The translations under genes and the position numbers were made by a program. Below are positions 8,596-42,968 of a stretch of DNA of 64,000 nt, in pieces (within the stretch, counting starts at the first letter, position 1; each line of letters opens with the position of its first letter). The notes under the pieces are model-generated. The model was not told where the DNA came from. It made no database searches and saw only the letters and a program-made list of their open reading frames with translations. The DNA comes from an uncultured delta proteobacterium (GTDB taxonomy: Bacteria; Myxococcota_A; UBA9160; SMWR01), in NCBI GenBank assembly GCA_963785985.1, contig CAWAXD010000024.1, forward strand, positions 68,885 to 132,884. Direction: 5' to 3'.

Positions 8596-9329
8596 ATGCC
8601 GGACCCCTTCTCCTGCTCGTCCACGTGGATGCCGCACTCGCGCGTCTCGGGGCTCTCCCACCACCAGCGGCCCGCGCGCGGATCGTCACCCGCCGCGATC
8701 GCGCGCGAGCAGGGGTCGCAGCCCACCGACGGATAGCCTTCGGCGTGCAGGCGGTTGATGGGGACGTCGTGCTTGCGCACGTAGGCGAGCACCTGTTCGT
8801 GCGTCCAGTCGGCGATCGGATTCACCTTCACGATGCCGCCGTGCTGGTTGTCGAATTGAACCTTCGCAGTGTCTTCGCGCGTCACGCCCTGGTCGCGGCG
8901 CAAGCCCGCCACCCAGGCGTCGAGCGTGGCGAGGTAGCGATTCAGCGGCTCGACCTTGCGCAGCCGGCAGCAGAGCTGGCGGTTCTCGATCGATTCGTAG
9001 AAGAGATTCATCCCCTTCGCCTGCACCATCGCCTCGACGGCGGCGGCCTCCGGGAAGACGACCTCGACGCGCTTGTCGTAGCGGTCGCGCACGCGATCGA
9101 TCAGGTCGTAGGTGGCTTGCGGCAGGCGGCCCGTATCGAGCACGAAGACCCGCGCAGCCGGGTCGATGCGGTGCATCATGTCGAGCAGCACCAGACCCTC
9201 GGGCGCGCCGAACGAGCAGGAGAGCGCGATCTTCGGGGCGAAGCTCTTGAGCGCCCAGCTCAGCAGCTGCTGCGGATCGAGCGCCTCGCCCTGTCCGGAC
9301 TCGATGAAGCGCCGGATTGCGTCGTGCAT
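8592..9329 (-). CDS. cysH: phosphoadenosine/adenosine 5-phosphosulfate reductase, Fe-S (APS-reductase) type
   Basis: ATG 9329 inside ORF 8592..9944, 245 aa. PAPS_reduct fold. Cys pair QLCCRLRK plus GCDPC (the CC...CxxC cluster ligands of APS reductases) and C-terminal ECGIH. Confidence 0.9.
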   Translation of the reverse strand: MHDAIRRFIESGQGEALDPQQLLSWALKSFAPKIALSCSFGAPEGLVLLDMMHRIDPAARVFVLDTGRLPQATYDLIDRVRDRYDKRVEVVFPEAAAVEAMVQAKGMNLFYESIENRQLCCRLRKVEPLNRYLATLDAWVAGLRRDQGVTREDTAKVQFDNQHGGIVKVNPIADWTHEQVLAYVRKHDVPINRLHAEGYPSVGCDPCSRAIAAGDDPRAGRWWWESPETRECGIHVDEQEKGSGI

Positions 9330-35692: not shown

Positions 35693-36670
35693 TCAGCTCA
35701 CCGTGCGCGGCACCCGGAGCCAGGCGTTGGCGAGCCGCACCGCCAGCGGATGCGTGAAGACCCGGCGCAGCCTCCACAAGGGCGAGTGCCACTGCGCCTC
35801 CGGGAGCTCGCCGTCGAGCAGCTCGCTCACGAGCCTTCCCGCGTGACCCGCCAGCGTGTCGAGAATGCGCTCGCCGAGCTCCGCCGACGCCTTCGCCGGC
35901 ATGCCGCTGTAGGTTTCTTCCGAGAAGAAGCGGATCCCCGCGCGGAACGAGACCAGCATGGCGCCGAATGCAGCGAGCTTGCCCCGCTCCGCCTTCGGAC
36001 GCTCTTCGCCTCGCTCCTGCAACCAGAGATCGACGTTGCGCCGCGGCAGGGCCTTGTACTGCGGATCCACCCAGTCCGGATGCAATGCCAGCAGCTGCGA
36101 GGTCTCGACGAGCCCGCCGTGGGTGTCGCCGTCGAAATCCGCCTTCTCGACACCGTCGAGATGCCCGAGCACGTCCCCCAGCTCCGAGCCTCCGCCGTTC
36201 AGGCGCGAGAGCAACGCGGAGAAGATGCACAGCATCGAGATCCCGCGCTCGCGGGAAACGCGATCGCACGCCACCTCGATCGCGAGGAAGTGGCGCGGGC
36301 TACCGTGGAAGTTCGAGACGAAGACGTGCTTGAAGCCCTGGGCCGCGAGCGAGCGTCCGAGATCCTCGATCACGGCGATCGTGGTCGAGGGCCGAAACGA
36401 GAGCGAGCCTGCCTGCGGTACGGGATCCGACGCGGCATAGATGCACGGGAGCTTCAGGAACGTGCGCTCCCGATGCCGCTCGGGCAGGAAGCGCAGCATG
36501 CGCTCGGCCAGTCCTTCCCCCTCGAGCACGTCCGCGCCGAGCGGCAGATGGGGGCCATGCACCTCGAGGGGCGAGCACGTGACGAGCACGATGGCGCGCT
36601 CGCGATCGATCGCGTCGAACTGGTCCTTCGTGAGCGTCTCCCAACGCAGCAACTTCGGCTCGTCATCCAT
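35693..36670 (-). CDS. creatininase-family amidohydrolase
   Basis: ATG 36670 inside ORF 35693..38209, 325 aa: VLVTCSPLEVHGPHLPLGADVL, FVSNFHGSPRH, DTHGG. Confidence 0.8.
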   Translation of the reverse strand: MDDEPKLLRWETLTKDQFDAIDRERAIVLVTCSPLEVHGPHLPLGADVLEGEGLAERMLRFLPERHRERTFLKLPCIYAASDPVPQAGSLSFRPSTTIAVIEDLGRSLAAQGFKHVFVSNFHGSPRHFLAIEVACDRVSRERGISMLCIFSALLSRLNGGGSELGDVLGHLDGVEKADFDGDTHGGLVETSQLLALHPDWVDPQYKALPRRNVDLWLQERGEERPKAERGKLAAFGAMLVSFRAGIRFFSEETYSGMPAKASAELGERILDTLAGHAGRLVSELLDGELPEAQWHSPLWRLRRVFTHPLAVRLANAWLRVPRTVS

Positions 36671-36696
36671 CCTGGGTCCCTCTCGTGGCCTCGATC

Positions 36697-38289
36697 TCAG
36701 AACCGCATCGGCATGATGGCGGCGACGATCAGCGCGATCCAGGCGGCGTCGAGCGCCGCGATCGCGAGCAGGTTGCGCGAAACCAGGTAGATCGACGCGT
36801 CCAGCACCTCGATCAACACGAACACGATCGCGAGCGCCGGCAACATCAGCATCACCACGTGCGGCAGCACGCCCGCGGCGACGCCGGCGATCAACACGAG
36901 CAGCATGAGCGCACGCCCGCCGGCGGCGTAGAGGGCGGCGGAAAGCGGCCGCCCGCGGCGCAGCAGGGTCTGCGTCGCGAGCTCGAGCGGCAGGAAGGCC
37001 AGGCCGACGAGCACGAACACGCCCATGCGTTCCGGCGTGAGGCCGAGCCGGTGGAAGTACGTGCCGAAGGGCTGAAGCAGCACGTAGATCCCGATCATCC
37101 CGAGCGCCGCACCGAGCAGGCTGCGCCCCGCTGCCGCGAACAGCGACGCGAACTGCATGCGATCGCGCAGGTACAACGCCACCAGCAGGACGATCCCGGC
37201 GAGCGCAAAGTGGTAGGCGACGACGTCCCCGACCTCGATCGACAAGATCGCTCCGGGATTGCCGGACGCAGCGAGCGGCATCGTCGCGAACAGCGCGCCG
37301 GCGAGCAGCGCGAGGCCGAGAGGCCGCCGCGACACCGGCAGGTGCTCGGTCGTGGGCGTCAGGCGCCCGATCAGCAGCCCGAAGCCCGGCAGCACGAGCA
37401 GCAGCAGCACGCCGAGCAGCGCCACGACGGGGCCACGCGGATCCGGATTCACCGGCGCGGCGCGTTGCTCGCGTCCGAACGCCGCGTCGAGCCAGGCGAC
37501 GATCTCCGAGAGCGCGAAGTCCGACCACAGGATGGTCAGGTGATCGGCGCCAGGAACCTCGACGCGGCGCACGGCCGTGCCCTGGCGGAAGTCTCCGTAG
37601 GTCTCCGCGAGAGCGGGCTGCGCGATGCCGGCGAGTCGCGCGGCCAGCTCGCCGGTGCGCGTGCGGATGCGCTCGGGATCGCCGGCCGCGTAGAGGAAGA
37701 GCGCGTTCCCCGCGCGCTGCGGCCCGAGCATGCTCCAGCCGCCCGAGATCAACACGACCGCGTCGATGCCGGCGTCTCGCGTCGCAAAATCGAGCGCGGC
37801 GCCGGCGCCCATCGAGTGCCCCAGCAGGGCGATGTGCGAGGCATCGACCAGCGGCGAGGTGCGCAGGAAGTCGACCGCCGCGGCGAGATCGCGCGCCAGG
37901 AAATCGGCGCGCCCCCGGCCACCCGGGAAGCGGTTGCGGTTCTCCCCGTGGCCGCGCAGGTCGATCGAGAGCACCGCGAAGCCTGCGCCCGCCAGCCCTC
38001 GCGCCAGGCGGCTCAGGCTCGCGCGGTCTGAGCTGAAGCCGTGCGCGAGCACGACCACGGGCGGGCGCGCGTCGGGAGACGGCGCATCGAGGAAGCGCGA
38101 GCTCCCGTCGCCTGCCGCCGACCCGGGCAGGAAAAGCGTTGCGGGAATCTCGCCATCGAGGCTGAGATCCATGTGGGGAGCGCCCCCCCTCTCGAGGCGT
38201 CCGAGCCACACGCTCGCGACGAGATACGCCCCGAAGGCGACGAGCGAGACGATCGACAGCAGGGTGGCGGACGAGCGAAAGCGCGGCAC
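36697..38289 (-). CDS. alpha/beta-hydrolase fused to a C-terminal polytopic membrane domain
   Basis: 530 aa. N-terminal TM, hydrolase core VVVLAHGFSSDR...LLGHSMGAGAA (GxSxG), then about 8 hydrophobic helices over the last 250 aa or so. Confidence 0.8.
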   Translation of the reverse strand: MPRFRSSATLLSIVSLVAFGAYLVASVWLGRLERGGAPHMDLSLDGEIPATLFLPGSAAGDGSSRFLDAPSPDARPPVVVLAHGFSSDRASLSRLARGLAGAGFAVLSIDLRGHGENRNRFPGGRGRADFLARDLAAAVDFLRTSPLVDASHIALLGHSMGAGAALDFATRDAGIDAVVLISGGWSMLGPQRAGNALFLYAAGDPERIRTRTGELAARLAGIAQPALAETYGDFRQGTAVRRVEVPGADHLTILWSDFALSEIVAWLDAAFGREQRAAPVNPDPRGPVVALLGVLLLLVLPGFGLLIGRLTPTTEHLPVSRRPLGLALLAGALFATMPLAASGNPGAILSIEVGDVVAYHFALAGIVLLVALYLRDRMQFASLFAAAGRSLLGAALGMIGIYVLLQPFGTYFHRLGLTPERMGVFVLVGLAFLPLELATQTLLRRGRPLSAALYAAGGRALMLLVLIAGVAAGVLPHVVMLMLPALAIVFVLIEVLDASIYLVSRNLLAIAALDAAWIALIVAAIMPMRF

Positions 38290-38354
38290 CGCGCCATGAA
38301 ACCCAGCGCCGCGCCCGAAGTCAACGCATTCGAGCGCGTGGTATCCTGAGGCGC

Positions 38355-39311
38355 TTGCCGAATCCGCCCGCAGCCAGGCCGCCTTCCGAGCGCATCCTAG
38401 TCACGGGAGCCAACGGCCACCTGGGGCGCCGTTTGCTCGAGCGGCTCGCGCAAAGGCCCGGCGGGAACGGGCGTGTGCGCGCGCTGGTGCGCTCGCGCGC
38501 CGCCGCGGCGGTGCTCGAGCGGCTTCCGGAAGGCGTGCGTCCCGAGATCGTGATCGTCGACTACACCGATAGCGAGACGCTCGCGCGCGCGGCCGCAGGC
38601 TGCGCCGCCGCCGTTCATCTGGTGGGCATCCTGCGCGAGACGCGCAGCAGCCGGTATGCGGACGCGCACGAGGCTACGACGCAGGCGCTCGCGCAAGCGG
38701 CGCCGCGCGCCGGGCTGCGCCGGATCGTCTACTTGAGCATTCTCGGCTCGCACGCGAAGGCGGCGAACGCCTGCCTCGCCTCGAAGGGCCGCGCCGAGGA
38801 CATCCTGCTCGCGGGCGCGACACCCGCGCTCGTGTTGCGCGTGCCGATGGTGATCGGGGCGGGCGACTTCGTCTCGCGGACGCTGCGCCAGCAGGCCCGC
38901 GCGCGCGTGGTGCCGCTGCTGCGCGGCGGCAGCGGGCGCGAGCAGCCGATCGACGCCGACGACGTCGTCACCGCGATCCTCGCCGGGCTCGAGCGTCCCG
39001 GCCTCGGCCGCGAAGCGCTCGACCTGGCGGGCCCCGAGTCGCTCAGCCGCCGGGATCTGCTCGCGCGCACGGCGCGTCTGTGGGGTACGCATCCGAGCGT
39101 GATCCCGCTGCCCTTTGCCCTCGAGTACGCCTTCGCCTTCGCGGCCGAGAAGCTGCTCGCGAATCCGCCGCTCACGCGCGCCATGCTCGGCGTGCTCGAC
39201 CACGACGACGACATCGACGTGAAGCCCGCCTGCGAGCGGCTGGGCCTGAAGCTCACCCCGCTCGACGAGACGCTGCGTCGCTGCGTAGGTCCCGGATCGG
39301 AGGGCGCATGA
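38355..39311 (+). CDS. NAD(P)-binding NmrA/atypical-SDR (epimerase-like) protein
   Basis: 318 aa: ILVTGANGHLGRRLL (GxxGxxG). The TTG start from the ORF track is uncertain. Confidence 0.75.
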   Translation: MPNPPAARPPSERILVTGANGHLGRRLLERLAQRPGGNGRVRALVRSRAAAAVLERLPEGVRPEIVIVDYTDSETLARAAAGCAAAVHLVGILRETRSSRYADAHEATTQALAQAAPRAGLRRIVYLSILGSHAKAANACLASKGRAEDILLAGATPALVLRVPMVIGAGDFVSRTLRQQARARVVPLLRGGSGREQPIDADDVVTAILAGLERPGLGREALDLAGPESLSRRDLLARTARLWGTHPSVIPLPFALEYAFAFAAEKLLANPPLTRAMLGVLDHDDDIDVKPACERLGLKLTPLDETLRRCVGPGSEGA

Positions 39312-40285
39312 GCGCGAATCCCGCACCGGCAGCGCGCGCGAGCAGCGCCTGGCTGCGGCGCGGCCTGCCCTGGCTGCTCACGCTGCTGTGTTTCGCCTAC
39401 CTCTACTGGAAGATCCACGGCCAGGCGGCGCGCGCGGGCGAGACGACGCTGCACTTCATCGCCGGCGTCTTCAGCGGCGTGAGCTGGACGCGCTGGCTCG
39501 CGCTGATGATTCCCTACTCGGCCTTCTTCCTGCTGATCGATTCTCTCGTCCTGTGGCGCGTCATCAACTGGTTCAACACCCGGGTGCGTTATCTCGACAT
39601 CCTGCCGATCCGGGCGAGCGCCTACATCATCTCGATTCTCGACGAGCGCATCGGCAAGGGCGCGATCGGCTACTACCTGCACCGCCGCGACGGCGTGCCC
39701 GGCTGGCAGGTGGGCTCGTCCATGCTCTTCATCATGTTCTGCGAGATCTACTACCTGCTGTCCTGGGCAACGCTCGGCGTCGCGCTGCGCGGCAGCCAGC
39801 TGCCGCCGGTCTTCCACGTGATTCCGTGGGTCGCGCTCGCAGCCGCCGCCGTGCTGGCCGTGTTCGTGCTCTACTTCCGCGGCGTGATCGCGCCCGCTTC
39901 GACGCTGCGCGACCGCCAGATCTTTCACGCCTTCCGACGGGCGGGCTTCTGGCACTACGCGGCCTTCATCGTGTTGCGTTCCCCCGCGATGATCGTGGGC
40001 GTCGTGGTCTATACGCTCGCGCTGCGGCTGTTCGGCGTCCGCGCGGAGTTTCTCGACATGCTCGGCTACCTCCCCGTGATCTTCTTCGGCGCGGCCGTGC
40101 CCGGGCCCTTCCGCGCCGTCGCGATCACGTTGTGGACGCAGCTCTTCCCCGACAGCCCCGGCCAGATGGCGGCGTTCGGCTTCGTGCAGCACAACTTCTT
40201 CGTGCTCTTCAATGCGGCGATCGGACTGCTCTTCCTGCGCCGCACCAACCGCGAGCTCGCGCAAACCGGAGCAACCGGTCGCTGA
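39308..40285 (+). CDS. flippase-like (lysyl-phosphatidylglycerol-synthase TM-region type) integral membrane protein
   Basis: ATG 39308 overlaps the upstream stop (ATGA), inside ORF 39080..40285. 325 aa with about 8 helices and an arrangement like UPF0104/LPG_synthase_TM. The family call is tentative. Confidence 0.6.
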   Translation: MSANPAPAARASSAWLRRGLPWLLTLLCFAYLYWKIHGQAARAGETTLHFIAGVFSGVSWTRWLALMIPYSAFFLLIDSLVLWRVINWFNTRVRYLDILPIRASAYIISILDERIGKGAIGYYLHRRDGVPGWQVGSSMLFIMFCEIYYLLSWATLGVALRGSQLPPVFHVIPWVALAAAAVLAVFVLYFRGVIAPASTLRDRQIFHAFRRAGFWHYAAFIVLRSPAMIVGVVVYTLALRLFGVRAEFLDMLGYLPVIFFGAAVPGPFRAVAITLWTQLFPDSPGQMAAFGFVQHNFFVLFNAAIGLLFLRRTNRELAQTGATGR

Positions 40286-40787
40286 TCGAGAGCAGGGTCG
40301 AGACGACGAGCGCCCAGCCGAGCGCGCGCACGAGCGCCGCACCCGGCCAACCGAGCCCGAGGGCATCGCGCACCACGGGCACCGCGACGATCACGTAGTA
40401 CGCGATGCCGTTCCAGCGGCCGAGCGCGCTCCCGCGCAGGCCACTCGAACGCATCAGCTTCGAGTCGAGCGCGTACTGCGCGAAGGCGACGGCGATCAGC
40501 GGCGCGAGCGCGTCGGGCAGCGCGCCGACGCTCGCGAGCGCCGCCGCCCCGAGGCTGACGAACGCCGCGTCGACCGCATGATCGAGAAGGCCTCCGAACG
40601 CCGAGATCTCGCCCCGCCGGCGGGCGATGCGGCCATCCGCGAAATCGCTCGCCGCCGCGCACGCGAAGACCAGACTCGCCGCGAACGGCGACCCGGCGCG
40701 CACCGCGAGCACGAACGGGAGCGCGAGCAGCAGCCGCGTCAGCGTGAGCGCGTTGGCCGGCGTCAGCCAGCGGGGTGCCGGATCCAT
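40209..40787 (-). CDS. CDP-alcohol phosphatidyltransferase family protein
   Basis: Lies in ORF 40209..40805. Signature D-G-x2-A-R-x8-G-x3-D-x3-D is present as DFADGRIARRRGEISAFGGLLDHAVD. ATG 40787 preferred (GTG 40805 is possible). Confidence 0.85.
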   Translation of the reverse strand: MDPAPRWLTPANALTLTRLLLALPFVLAVRAGSPFAASLVFACAAASDFADGRIARRRGEISAFGGLLDHAVDAAFVSLGAAALASVGALPDALAPLIAVAFAQYALDSKLMRSSGLRGSALGRWNGIAYYVIVAVPVVRDALGLGWPGAALVRALGWALVVSTLLSISDRLLRFARARGWCGAGRAVRSPH

Positions 40788-40798
40788 CGCAGGCGACT

Positions 40799-41791
40799 CT
40801 ACCACCCGTTCTCCCGGCTCCGGCGCGCGAGCGCGAACAGGACGGTCGTGACGGCCGCGAGCACGAGCGTCACGCGGTCGCCCGTTTTCAGCGACTCCGC
40901 GATGGCGCCGTCGGCGAGCCGCTCGAGCGGCCGGCGGCCGGTCGCCGGCGTGGTCATCACGGCCTCGATCCTCGGCGGATCCGTGAGGGTGATCCGCACG
41001 TAATGGAACGAGTTGCCCGGCTCGACGTCCTTGCCGCCGCCGCCCGAGACGACCAGCGGCACTCCGGCCTCGTCGCCGCGCAGAAAGGCGTGGAGATGGC
41101 CCGTACAGAGAAGAGTCACGTGCGCCTCGCGCAGGCGCTCGAGCAGCCGAGCCGCAACGTTTGCGTCGTGGATGGTATGGCCTTCCCCGAGCCGCTTCGG
41201 CCCCGGCGCACCCGGATTGTAGGGAGGGCAGTGCGTCAGGACGACGAGCCAGCGCAGGTCCGGCGCGGGCGGTGGGGGCCTCCGCAGCGCTTCATCGAGG
41301 AACCGGAACGACGCCTCCGACACCGTGTCTTCGGCGCTGTCGAGCAACACGATGCGCAGGCCGTCCTTCTCGACCACGCGGTTCCGGCCACCGAACGAGG
41401 CGTCCCACGTCGCGTAGCCGCGCCCGGCTTCGCGATCGTGATCGCCGGGGACGGCGAAGATCGGCAATGGAAGCGCCTCGGCGGCCGAGAGGAAGCGCCC
41501 GTACTCGCGCGGACCGCGATAGCCGATGTCGCCCGCGTGGAGCACGAGCAGCGCCGGCTCGCGCGCCATCGCTGCGAAGTTCGCGCGCAGCTCCGGTGAA
41601 GCGGCTCCGGTATCGCCGATCAGGAGCAGCACGGGCGCGTCCGGCACGTCCCGCTTCGCGAGCCGCGCCTCGGATCGCGCGAAGAGCGTGCCCTCTACTC
41701 TATATTGCGTAGAAATGCGCGCCGCGACGTGGAAGCCTCCGACCAGAACGGTCAGCGCAGCGGCGAGGCGGGCCAGACGTGCGAGGAGCAT
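40799..41791 (-). CDS. metallophosphoesterase with N- and C-terminal membrane anchors
   Basis: ATG 41791 inside ORF 40799..41995. Calcineurin-like motifs LLIGDTG, HAGDIGY, VPGDHD, GHLH. Hydrophobic segments at both ends. Confidence 0.8.
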   Translation of the reverse strand: MLLARLARLAAALTVLVGGFHVAARISTQYRVEGTLFARSEARLAKRDVPDAPVLLLIGDTGAASPELRANFAAMAREPALLVLHAGDIGYRGPREYGRFLSAAEALPLPIFAVPGDHDREAGRGYATWDASFGGRNRVVEKDGLRIVLLDSAEDTVSEASFRFLDEALRRPPPPAPDLRWLVVLTHCPPYNPGAPGPKRLGEGHTIHDANVAARLLERLREAHVTLLCTGHLHAFLRGDEAGVPLVVSGGGGKDVEPGNSFHYVRITLTDPPRIEAVMTTPATGRRPLERLADGAIAESLKTGDRVTLVLAAVTTVLFALARRSRENGW

Positions 41792-41867: not shown

Positions 41868-42263
41868 GTGAGACGCGAGCGCGCGAGCGATGGGGGACGG
41901 GCGCTTCGCGCCGTGGCGCATGGACTGCTCGCGGTGGCGCTGTTCGGCCTGGCGTGCTCGGAGCGCTCGAGCACCTCCGCGGGCAGCGATGCCAAGCTCG
42001 ATCCGGGCCGGGCTGCCGCCAGGGAGCGCGGCCGGAAGATCTACGAGAACGTCTGCATCGCCTGCCACAATGGCGATCCGACCCAGCCGGGCTCGCTCGG
42101 CCCCCAGGTCGCCGGCGCCTCGCTCGAGCTGCTCGAGGCGAGGGTGCTGCGCGCCGAGTACCCGCTCGGCTACACGCCCTTGCGTCCTTCCCACGCGATG
42201 CCGAAGTACGAGTACCTGAAGGACAGGCTCGGCGATCTCGCGGCCTACCTACAGCAGGATTGA
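41868..42263 (+). CDS. c-type cytochrome, probable lipoprotein
   Basis: Lies in ORF 41526..42263. Lipobox-like LFGLAC and heme motif CIACH. Start GTG 41868 (or 41913) is uncertain. Confidence 0.7.
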   Translation: MRRERASDGGRALRAVAHGLLAVALFGLACSERSSTSAGSDAKLDPGRAAARERGRKIYENVCIACHNGDPTQPGSLGPQVAGASLELLEARVLRAEYPLGYTPLRPSHAMPKYEYLKDRLGDLAAYLQQD

Positions 42264-42968
42264 CTGCGCCAGGTAGAGCAGCAGGGTGACCCCGAGGCCG
42301 AAATGCAGCGTGCCGCGCACCGTCGCGAGCGGCTTCTGTAGCGGCCGCCCGGAGCCCGACAGCCCGTTCCATTCCAGCACGGCCGCCAGCACGAAGAACA
42401 CGATCCAGTAGAGACCGAGGTGGCCTTCGCCCAGCTCGAGGCCCGCCGTCAGCGACGGAAAATGGCTCGCGGCCGCCATGAAGAACAGCATCGGGATCGA
42501 GAAGAGCGTGTTCGTTCGCGAGGCGAGCCCGGCGCGCGCGCCGCGGCCCGCCGCTGCGGGATCGGCCTGACCGCCGCCGGCGACGGCGGTCGCCGAGGCG
42601 ATCACCACCTGCTGCGCGGGCCAGATCACGAACCACACGTTGTACCACATCAGTGTACCCAGCAGGCCGCCGGTCAGGATGCGCGTGCTGTAGCCGCTGG
42701 CGAGCGGCACGCCGTCGTGTCCGAGCTTGGTGAGCAGGATCAGCCAGCCGGTGAGAAACGTGAACATCGCGCCCCAGCGGAACCACCACAGCGCGTTCGG
42801 GACCAGCCCGCGCACCATCGCGCTGCGCGCCTGGCCGCCGAGCTCGCTGCCGAAGAAGGGGGTCTGGACCAGATTGAAGTAGTAGAGCATGCCGATCCAG
42901 GTGATCCCGGCCAAGAAATGGAACCAGCGGAGCAGGAAGTACCAACCTTCCATGCTGAAGATCTCCAT
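42249..42968 (-). CDS. integral membrane protein resembling the membrane domain of PuuD-type urate hydroxylases (tentative)
   Basis: ATG 42968 after AGGAGGA, inside ORF 42249..43646. 239 aa: LLRWFHFLAGITWIGMLYYFNLVQ, about 6 helices. Confidence 0.65.
   Translation of the reverse strand: MEIFSMEGWYFLLRWFHFLAGITWIGMLYYFNLVQTPFFGSELGGQARSAMVRGLVPNALWWFRWGAMFTFLTGWLILLTKLGHDGVPLASGYSTRILTGGLLGTLMWYNVWFVIWPAQQVVIASATAVAGGGQADPAAAGRGARAGLASRTNTLFSIPMLFFMAAASHFPSLTAGLELGEGHLGLYWIVFFVLAAVLEWNGLSGSGRPLQKPLATVRGTLHFGLGVTLLLYLAQSILL

Follow-up and report, generated by a model that had tools for sequence, protein, structure and literature searches.

Do six neighbouring genes in the genome of an uncultured member of the Myxococcota belong to one membrane-lipid pathway, and if not, which of them belong together? 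The window, i.e. the whole stretch of 64,000 nucleotides of contig CAWAXD010000024.1 analysed here (about 70% G+C), carries side by side the genes for a creatininase-family amidohydrolase, an alpha/beta-hydrolase fused to a polytopic membrane domain, an NAD(P)-binding short-chain dehydrogenase/reductase (SDR), a flippase-like membrane protein, a cytidine diphosphate (CDP)-alcohol phosphotransferase (hereafter the transferase) and a metallophosphoesterase (Table 1). The original prediction had read them as one cluster for the synthesis and remodelling of an unusual phospholipid head group. All six open reading frames were confirmed at their predicted coordinates, as were their domains, the ATGA shared by the SDR stop and the flippase-like start (39308-39311), the 65-nt spacer between the hydrolase fusion and the divergent SDR gene, and the convergence of the plus- and minus-strand genes. 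The idea of a lipid head-group module also holds in part: a non-housekeeping transferase and a flippase-like protein are indeed co-conserved, but the conserved unit comprises three genes (SDR, flippase-like protein and transferase), not six. This trio, surrounded by lineage-specific neighbours, probably makes and flips a non-canonical phospholipid.

From the comparison of related genomes, it is clear that the six genes do not form a conserved unit. For synteny, the surroundings of the transferase orthologue were compared in 36 relatives from the window's order, and presence or absence was scored over 40 relatives (41 genomes with the window's own). In about 28 of the 36 relatives, the SDR-flippase operon and the transferase gene converge. 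At the loci where the transferase does not lie beside the flippase-like gene (seven were fetched), it is mostly the transferase that has moved and the SDR-flippase pair that has stayed in place, the layout then mostly being SufS-MFS-(hydrolase)-SDR-flippase-ProRS (MFS, major facilitator superfamily; ProRS, prolyl-tRNA synthetase); the displaced transferase keeps the company of the small cytochrome c and PuuD-N-like genes that also stand near it in the window (L041, L045, L047, L059 and L060). The transferase is present in 37 of the 41 genomes, and within the order the flippase-like gene and the transferase are missing together from G012, G032 and G040. The metallophosphoesterase, on the other hand, occurs in 3 of the 41, all of one genus, with no orthologue in 38 of the 40 relatives at E<=1e-8. 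Together with the creatininase it adjoins the trio only in two relatives of the window's genus, and the clear creatininase orthologues of about 17 other relatives all lie on other contigs or some 40 kb off. Orthologues of the hydrolase fusion were found in 16 of the 40 relatives, beside the SDR wherever this could be assessed, two being on separate short contigs. The phosphoesterase and the creatininase are thus additions in the window's genus, the latter lying outside the module, and neither should be taken in annotation as part of the pathway. The hydrolase fusion is an optional accessory neighbour that may have a remodelling role.

The entire SufS-MFS-...-ProRS region is collinear throughout the order, so that linkage within the Myxococcota is by itself weak evidence for a functional unit, and more distant lineages were therefore examined. 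A locus scan with one genome per species gave 469 loci encoding the flippase-like protein. Among the best 80 of these 469, the SDR adjoins the flippase-like gene in 60 of the 72 that could be assessed, and the transferase does so in 47 of 76, with 10 more nearby. In metagenome-assembled genomes (MAGs) labelled Acidobacteriota, Terriglobia or Bryobacteraceae (G+C 56-62%), the SDR and flippase-like genes are joined or overlapping and the transferase is convergent with them, the 3′ ends usually overlapping, with unrelated flanks. In MAGs labelled Gammaproteobacteria or Pseudomonadales, the flippase-like gene stands alone and the orthologous transferase lies at another locus, where it is divergently paired with an SDR orthologue in four of the six such loci examined. 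All three pairwise linkages among the trio genes thus occur, in other lineages with unrelated flanks. As a control, 52 genes of the window, called with a crude gene caller, were searched against the Acidobacteriota- and Gammaproteobacteria-labelled loci. Just two of them recurred, namely the SDR (at 12 of 14 and 4 of 13 loci, respectively) and the transferase (at 14 of 14 and 6 of 13), and neither the hydrolase fusion, nor the phosphoesterase, nor the creatininase was found beside the trio at the loci of these two lineages. The six genes proposed originally are therefore co-conserved neither in the order nor outside it. A link of the trio to the LuxC/LuxE/aminotransferase operon about 11 kb upstream was also considered and dropped as order-level synteny only, since no such genes lie beside the trio in other lineages.

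The tie between the SDR and the flippase-like protein is closest in P0121, a protein of 626 amino acids made up of a full-length SDR, a linker of about 25 residues and a full-length flippase-like domain. The flippase-like gene and the transferase orthologue also follow each other across genomes. In an evenly drawn sample of 201 Myxococcota genomes, both were present in 34 and both absent from 166 (including all 163 genomes of other classes), and the transferase occurred alone in one. No relative of either protein was found in a plasmid collection.

Of the trio, the flippase-like protein is the most conserved. In the Acidobacteriota-labelled group, the SDR is about 31% and the transferase about 44% identical to those of the window, while the flippase-like protein reaches 57-66% in lineages (L108, L141, L147, L145 and L149) whose ProRS is only 43-54% identical. 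The ProRS values are 54% for the Acidobacteriota-labelled and 43-46% for the Gammaproteobacteria-labelled genomes, as against 67-68% within the order. Such high conservation points to recent horizontal transfer or to an unusually strong constraint on the membrane protein. Such a constraint, if it exists, could mean that the protein does more than translocate passively; it might, for instance, be the half of an enzyme complex that lies in the membrane and binds the substrate.

The flippase-like protein itself gave no significant match in Pfam, NCBIfam or PDB sequence searches (PF03706, E=4.5). An exhaustive phmmer search with it returned 478 clusters only, including full-length relatives with 27-38% of their residues identical. 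Of ten remoter proteins that were scanned, eight are related over their full length (E 1e-18 to 1e-49 against the query), and all eight match PF03706 (LPG_synthase_TM) at 30.7-62.2 bits, two of them falling just below the cut-off of 33.4. The AlphaFold model of the window protein (predicted local distance difference test, pLDDT, 89.4) has MprF as each of its top five PDB fold matches, with a TMq (template modelling score, TM) of 0.60-0.66, a probability of 1.00 and about 340 aligned columns; the next matches have a TM below 0.3. Because distant full-length relatives match PF03706 and the model matches only MprF, the label "flippase-like" is right, in the sense of an MprF-like protein as judged from the predicted fold and transitive homology, and the original call holds.

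The transferase contains the complete family motif (D-x2-DG-x2-AR-x8-G-x3-D-x3-D), and its PF01066 score (Table 1) exceeds the gathering threshold of 22 bits. Its AlphaFold model (pLDDT 92.6) has a six-helix core that matches PgsA, phosphatidylinositol phosphate (PIP) synthases and AF2299 with a probability of 1.00 and TM 0.45-0.68, being about as close to Staphylococcus aureus PgsA (TM 0.62-0.68) as to the PIP synthases (about 0.6). Five PF01066 genes are present in the window's own genome. Among these are a true PgsA (149.6 bits versus a cut-off of 109.1), a true PssA (124.1 versus 107) and a paralogue resembling PIP/archaetidylinositol phosphate (AIP) synthases (128 and 147 bits; cut-offs of 170 for NF045883 and 180 for NF040950). 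The transferase falls under every NCBIfam equivalog cut-off, with 27-39 bits versus 109-240: it scores 38.7 bits against TIGR00560 pgsA (cut-off 109.1), 34.4 against the ClsA type NF053678 (240), and 27.2 and 38.3 against the PIP/AIP synthase models NF045883 and NF040950. The fifth paralogue (C16:416436-416792, about 400 amino acids) has a soluble N-terminal extension of some 190 residues and a DHxxD motif variant, and is likewise under every curated NCBIfam cut-off.

A maximum-likelihood tree was built from 27 transferase orthologues of three lineages, 19 Myxococcota PgsA paralogues, the paralogues of the window's genome and two annotated pgsA references. The orthologues form a clade of their own (97/92), separated from PgsA by branches of 2.9 and 1.2 changes per site, and the transferase does not cluster with ordinary PgsA. 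In the alignment of the same 27 orthologues, an invariant His follows the third Asp of the motif (DHxxD[A/F]), as compared with the DPxxDK signature of PgsA and Cls and the DSxxD of PssA and PIP synthases. The curated cut-offs, the inventory of paralogues and the tree together rule out an ordinary PgsA, PssA or PIP synthase, and by these sequence measures the transferase is none of the three. Some pipelines, namely those of the Joint Genome Institute (JGI), label its members "phosphatidylglycerophosphate synthase" or "cardiolipin synthase"; in annotation it should be named neither PgsA nor cardiolipin synthase.

PgsA (S. aureus, 7DRJ/7DRK, PMC8640168) is nevertheless the nearest paralogue family, sharing with the transferase the six-helix fold, the metal-binding motif and a similar size. 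The transferase differs from it by the score far below the pgsA cut-off, the separate clade, the presence of a genuine PgsA elsewhere in its genome and the loss of phosphate-binding residues. In S. aureus PgsA, Lys83, Arg110 and Lys137 hold the 3′-phosphate of phosphatidylglycerophosphate (PGP) (PMC8640168). In the transferase orthologues, the acceptor pocket being compared by sequence alignment only, Ala stands in the place of Lys83 and an invariant Asn in that of Lys137; for Arg110 there is no counterpart. Because these residues are lost, there is no indication that the acceptor is phosphorylated or, in consequence, that a phosphatase would be needed. Arg118, nearly invariant in the loop between helices 4 and 5, leaves an anionic acceptor possible. 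As for the donor, no cytidylyltransferase gene was found beside the module in the contexts examined, which mildly favours CDP-diacylglycerol, made by the ubiquitous CdsA, as the likelier one.

The best PDB sequence match of the transferase is CHPT1 (E 2.9e-4). Like the eukaryotic choline/ethanolamine phosphotransferases CHPT1/CEPT1 (PDB 8ERO, 8GYW; PMC10182977), it has a His straight after the third motif Asp (D3-H-x-x-D4); for the corresponding His133 of Xenopus CHPT1, a role in activating the lipid hydroxyl has been proposed, and most bacterial members of the family are said to lack this residue (PMC10182977). Of the catalytic Glu/His pair in the Kennedy-type extended motif G2-E-x-x-D3-H-x-x-D4, the His is invariant in the 27 orthologues. 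The partner Glu after G2 is not kept (G/S/R/A at this position), the fold has six helices rather than ten, and no cytidylyltransferase accompanies the gene in the contexts examined.

For the SDR, the nearest solved structures are the NDUFA9 subunits of complex I (E 2e-17). Its glycine-rich NAD(P) motif TGxNGxxG (TGANGxxG) is invariant, as are Ser128 and Asn138 across the orthologues. The protein has no signal peptide, and its place ahead of helix 1 of the flippase-like part in P0121 suggests that it lies on the cytoplasmic face. Its known counterparts, NDUFA9 (a complex I subunit of 39 kDa) and, in bacteria, the ceramide reductase CerR of Caulobacter, a homologue of NDUFA9, are membrane-peripheral, lipid-facing proteins that bind NAD(P)H. 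CerR, however, is reported to be periplasmic (PMC11087976), unlike the location suggested here; the trio does not track a candidate serine palmitoyltransferase gene, and the catalytic Tyr is a Cys in the SDR of the window's clade.

Taken together, the trio is best read, by analogy with MprF and with the GpgSDF operon as the nearest working parallels, as a synthase, a modifier or gate, and a translocator for a specialised phospholipid. In the proposed mechanism, of which we infer the substrates, the donor, the order of the steps, the flipping, the redox chemistry and the catalytic competence of the SDR, the transferase would form a non-canonical phospholipid at the cytoplasmic face, with CDP-diacylglycerol as the likelier donor; the NDUFA9-like SDR, which binds NAD(P) and would sit at the cytoplasmic face of the MprF-like protein, would modify this lipid by redox chemistry or gate its handling; and the MprF-like protein would flip it. 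We suggest tentatively, and with less confidence than the module itself, that the trio specifies an undescribed class of phospholipids, whose head group or handling would depend on an NDUFA9-like protein that binds NAD(P)(H) and is firmly tied to a membrane protein of the MprF type.

It has been proposed that proteins with a PplT domain translocate lipids in general and are paired with enzymes of lipid metabolism (bioRxiv 10.1101/2022.03.11.483950), and known systems offer parallels for the trio. MprF (PDB 7F47, 7DUW, 6LVF, 9J8S), an aminoacyl-phosphatidylglycerol synthase fused to a flippase/scramblase domain, has the same membrane-domain fold as the flippase-like protein, and in both cases a cytoplasmic lipid-modifying partner is attached to the translocator or encoded with it, a fused SDR-flippase form existing here as well. 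The partner here is, however, an NDUFA9-like SDR and not an aminoacyl-tRNA-dependent synthase, it is N-terminal rather than C-terminal when fused, the flippase-like protein of the window stays below the PF03706 threshold, and the trio includes a dedicated CDP-alcohol phosphotransferase. Alike in logic, and in logic only, is GpgSDF of Pseudomonas aeruginosa, which comprises a glucosaminyl-phosphatidylglycerol (GlcN-PG) synthase, a deacetylase and a UPF0104 flippase, and for which the analogous HexSDF of Clostridioides difficile is cited (PMC12713373). There too, a unit of three genes brings together the synthase of a lipid head group, an enzyme that modifies this head group and a stand-alone membrane protein of the UPF0104/PplT kind. 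In the trio, a CDP-alcohol phosphotransferase takes the place of the glycosyltransferase and an SDR that of the deacetylase, and the transferase gene is convergent or at another locus rather than in one operon. In the literature searched, we found no paper that describes this gene combination, and what would be new is a synthase-modifier-flippase lipid module built of different enzyme families.

Stand-alone MprF-like (PplT/UPF0104) proteins are widespread, while the lipid cargo is known for few of them, and each solved case (lysyl-phosphatidylglycerol, GlcN-PG and the HexSDF glycolipid of C. difficile) has uncovered a new membrane lipid. The trio is a compact and heterologously testable candidate for another such lipid in abundant uncultured bacteria of soil and water. 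If the proposal is true, the lipid would be present in one class of uncultured Myxococcota and in environmental bacteria labelled Acidobacteriota or Gammaproteobacteria, and both a CDP-alcohol phosphotransferase clade that is so far an orphan and an NDUFA9-like protein of bacteria would gain a function.

Some observations weigh against this reading, in addition to the limited value of linkage within the Myxococcota noted above. The Tyr of the SDR YxxxK motif is a Cys (NACLASK) in the Myxococcota and the Gammaproteobacteria-labelled clades, being kept in the Acidobacteriota-labelled clade and in the P0121 fusion, and Lys144, nearly invariant, is Arg in two orthologues. The SDR may therefore be no conventional oxidoreductase; with Cys for Tyr, its catalysis may be non-classical, or it may serve as an NAD(P)H-binding subunit. 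Several atypical SDRs with non-classical catalysis are known. The conservation of the flippase-like protein could reflect a recent horizontal transfer of the module instead of functional constraint. The taxon labels of the other lineages are those of the submitters, and all carriers found here are MAGs. The references in the transferase tree, finally, lack cardiolipin synthases, phosphatidylcholine synthases (Pcs) and Kennedy-type enzymes.

Other explanations of the locus differ from the proposed module in which genes take part or in what they handle. The six-gene pathway of the original prediction would have the transferase make a phosphorylated product of the PGP or PIP type, the phosphoesterase dephosphorylate it, the flippase-like protein export it, and the hydrolase fusion and the creatininase remodel it. 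In the window's genus, the phosphoesterase does lie directly upstream of the transferase, on the same strand and 11 nt away or overlapping, and it carries membrane anchors (hydrophobic segments at residues 2-20 and 304-322 in a hydropathy scan). A distant relative, P0416, is fused to a phosphatidylethanolamine methyltransferase (PEMT)-like domain (PF04191), and another overlaps an ArnT/PMT-type glycosyltransferase gene by 4 nt in a cluster with GT2 (family 2 glycosyltransferase) and LAB_N genes (metagenome contig L166 4652-7077), which makes a role of the phosphoesterase family in envelope lipids plausible. PGP phosphatases are also non-orthologous between organisms. The family is nonetheless small (29 clusters only), none of its few relatives elsewhere lies next to a CDP-alcohol transferase, and the phosphoesterase is missing from most genomes that hold the transferase; the pairing of the two is confined to the window's genus. 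The creatininase is unlinked outside the genus, neither gene lies beside the trio in the other two lineages, and the PgsA phosphate-binding residues are gone. A synthase/phosphatase pair is not supported as conserved, and the six-gene pathway as a whole is unlikely. Somewhat better placed, if still improbable, is the view that no new lipid is involved: the transferase would be a diverged second PGP-type or cytidine monophosphate (CMP)-forming cardiolipin-type synthase, and the SDR-flippase pair a general, perhaps redox-gated, translocator of ordinary phospholipids, a role of the kind proposed for YbhN, encoded next to clsB in Escherichia coli. The nearest paralogue family and best fold match of the transferase are indeed PgsA, the JGI labels point the same way, Escherichia coli pplT/ybhN shares an operon with clsB (bioRxiv 10.1101/2022.03.11.483950), and the catalytic Tyr is missing from the SDR of the window's clade. 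This view has to account for scores far below the pgsA and ClsA cut-offs, for an invariant DHxxD[A/F] in place of DPxxDK, for the long branch to PgsA, and for a true PgsA and candidate cardiolipin synthases of the phospholipase D (PLD) type (PF13091) already in place. Since such PLD-type proteins, some with the two-domain Cls layout, are present in these genomes, a CMP-forming cardiolipin synthase as the sole Cls is not needed, though the transferase may yet have such an activity.

A sphingolipid module was also considered, in which the SDR would be a CerR-like ceramide reductase, the transferase would add a phospho-head group to ceramide, and the flippase-like protein would export the product. 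The homology of CerR to NDUFA9, the nearest solved relative of the SDR, and the lack of a known sphingolipid flippase (PMC11087976) are in keeping with it, and so is the His after Asp3 of the transferase, which recalls transferases with lipid-alcohol acceptors (PMC10182977). The window's genome even has an Spt-like alpha-oxoamine synthase gene (C7:91288-92475, with a "GSRLLNGT" region) beside MlaA- and MlaC-like lipid-transport genes. This gene, possibly for a serine palmitoyltransferase and unrelated to the trio, has close orthologues in some relatives only (G001, 95%; G012, 76%; G046, 64%). It does not co-occur with the trio, however: G012 carries it without the trio; in G025, G031 and G035, where the trio is present, its paralogues reach only about 42%; and the trio-bearing G042, G043, G045, G048 and G241 of other lineages lack any alpha-oxoamine-synthase match at E<=1e-40. 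The sphingolipid reading has accordingly been set aside as very improbable. Equally hard to believe is that the adjacency is a meaningless conserved synteny of unrelated genes. The collinearity across the order would allow it, but each of the three gene pairs is found linked again in other lineages, amid unrelated flanks, the P0121 fusion joins two of the proteins, and the presence and absence of the genes agree almost perfectly. A three-gene lipid module remains our preferred reading of the locus.

The coordinates of the six genes and of two context genes are collected in Table 1. The flippase-like and transferase genes converge with a coding overlap of 77 nt at their 3′ ends (40209-40285). 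A tail-to-tail overlap of these two genes recurs, as about 39 nt, in Acidobacteriota-labelled loci (L122, L141, L147 around 8904-8954), so that the convergent overlapping layout is itself kept across lineages. The ATG at 40787 is more likely to be the start of the transferase than the GTG at 40805, because it gives 192 amino acids, the length of most called homologues.

Table 1. Genes of the trio, their neighbours and two context genes in the window, with the evidence for each assignment.
Feature	Position	Strand	Evidence
Creatininase-family amidohydrolase	35693-36670	(-)	PF02633 Creatininase, 127 bits
Alpha/beta-hydrolase + polytopic membrane fusion	36697-38289	(-)	Hydrolase_4 / Abhydrolase matches, residues ~72-230
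NDUFA9-like atypical SDR, NAD(P)-binding; core gene 1	38355-39311	(+)	Pfam Epimerase / NAD_binding_10 / NmrA
MprF-flippase-domain-like (PplT / UPF0104 / PF03706 superfamily) polytopic protein; core gene 2	39308-40285	(+)	Predicted fold and remote homology
Small six-helix CDP-alcohol phosphotransferase; core gene 3	40209-40787 (alternative GTG start 40805)	(-)	PF01066 CDP-OH_P_transf, 64.7 bits
Metallophosphoesterase, genus-specific insertion	40799-41791	(-)	PF00149 Metallophos
Small cytochrome c gene, context gene	~41868-42263	(+)	Synteny tables
PuuD-N-like membrane protein, context gene	42249-42968	(-)	PF06181

In the hydrolase fusion, a hydropathy scan gave one N-terminal and about 7-8 C-terminal hydrophobic segments; the C-terminal polytopic domain (about 240 residues, window 36697-37500) has no Pfam match even at E=10. 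The hydrolases that adjoin the module differ in family from lineage to lineage: 40% of the window's order have the alpha/beta-hydrolase fusion, its genus has the metallophosphoesterase, and two Gammaproteobacteria-labelled loci have PF00756 and PF00144 proteins. At the latter, the divergent transferase/SDR pair is flanked by genes for a serine hydrolase of the beta-lactamase family (PF00144) and an esterase (PF00756) (L158 6838-10674, L161 6074-11316). These neighbouring hydrolases may be optional trimming enzymes or chance neighbours. In the Acidobacteriota-labelled loci, the trio adjoins one or two genes for radical S-adenosylmethionine (SAM) proteins of the CofH/MqnC/MqnE type, i.e. of the futalosine menaquinone or FO synthase type (L108 9640-11061, L141 9516-11950, L122 12426-14920).

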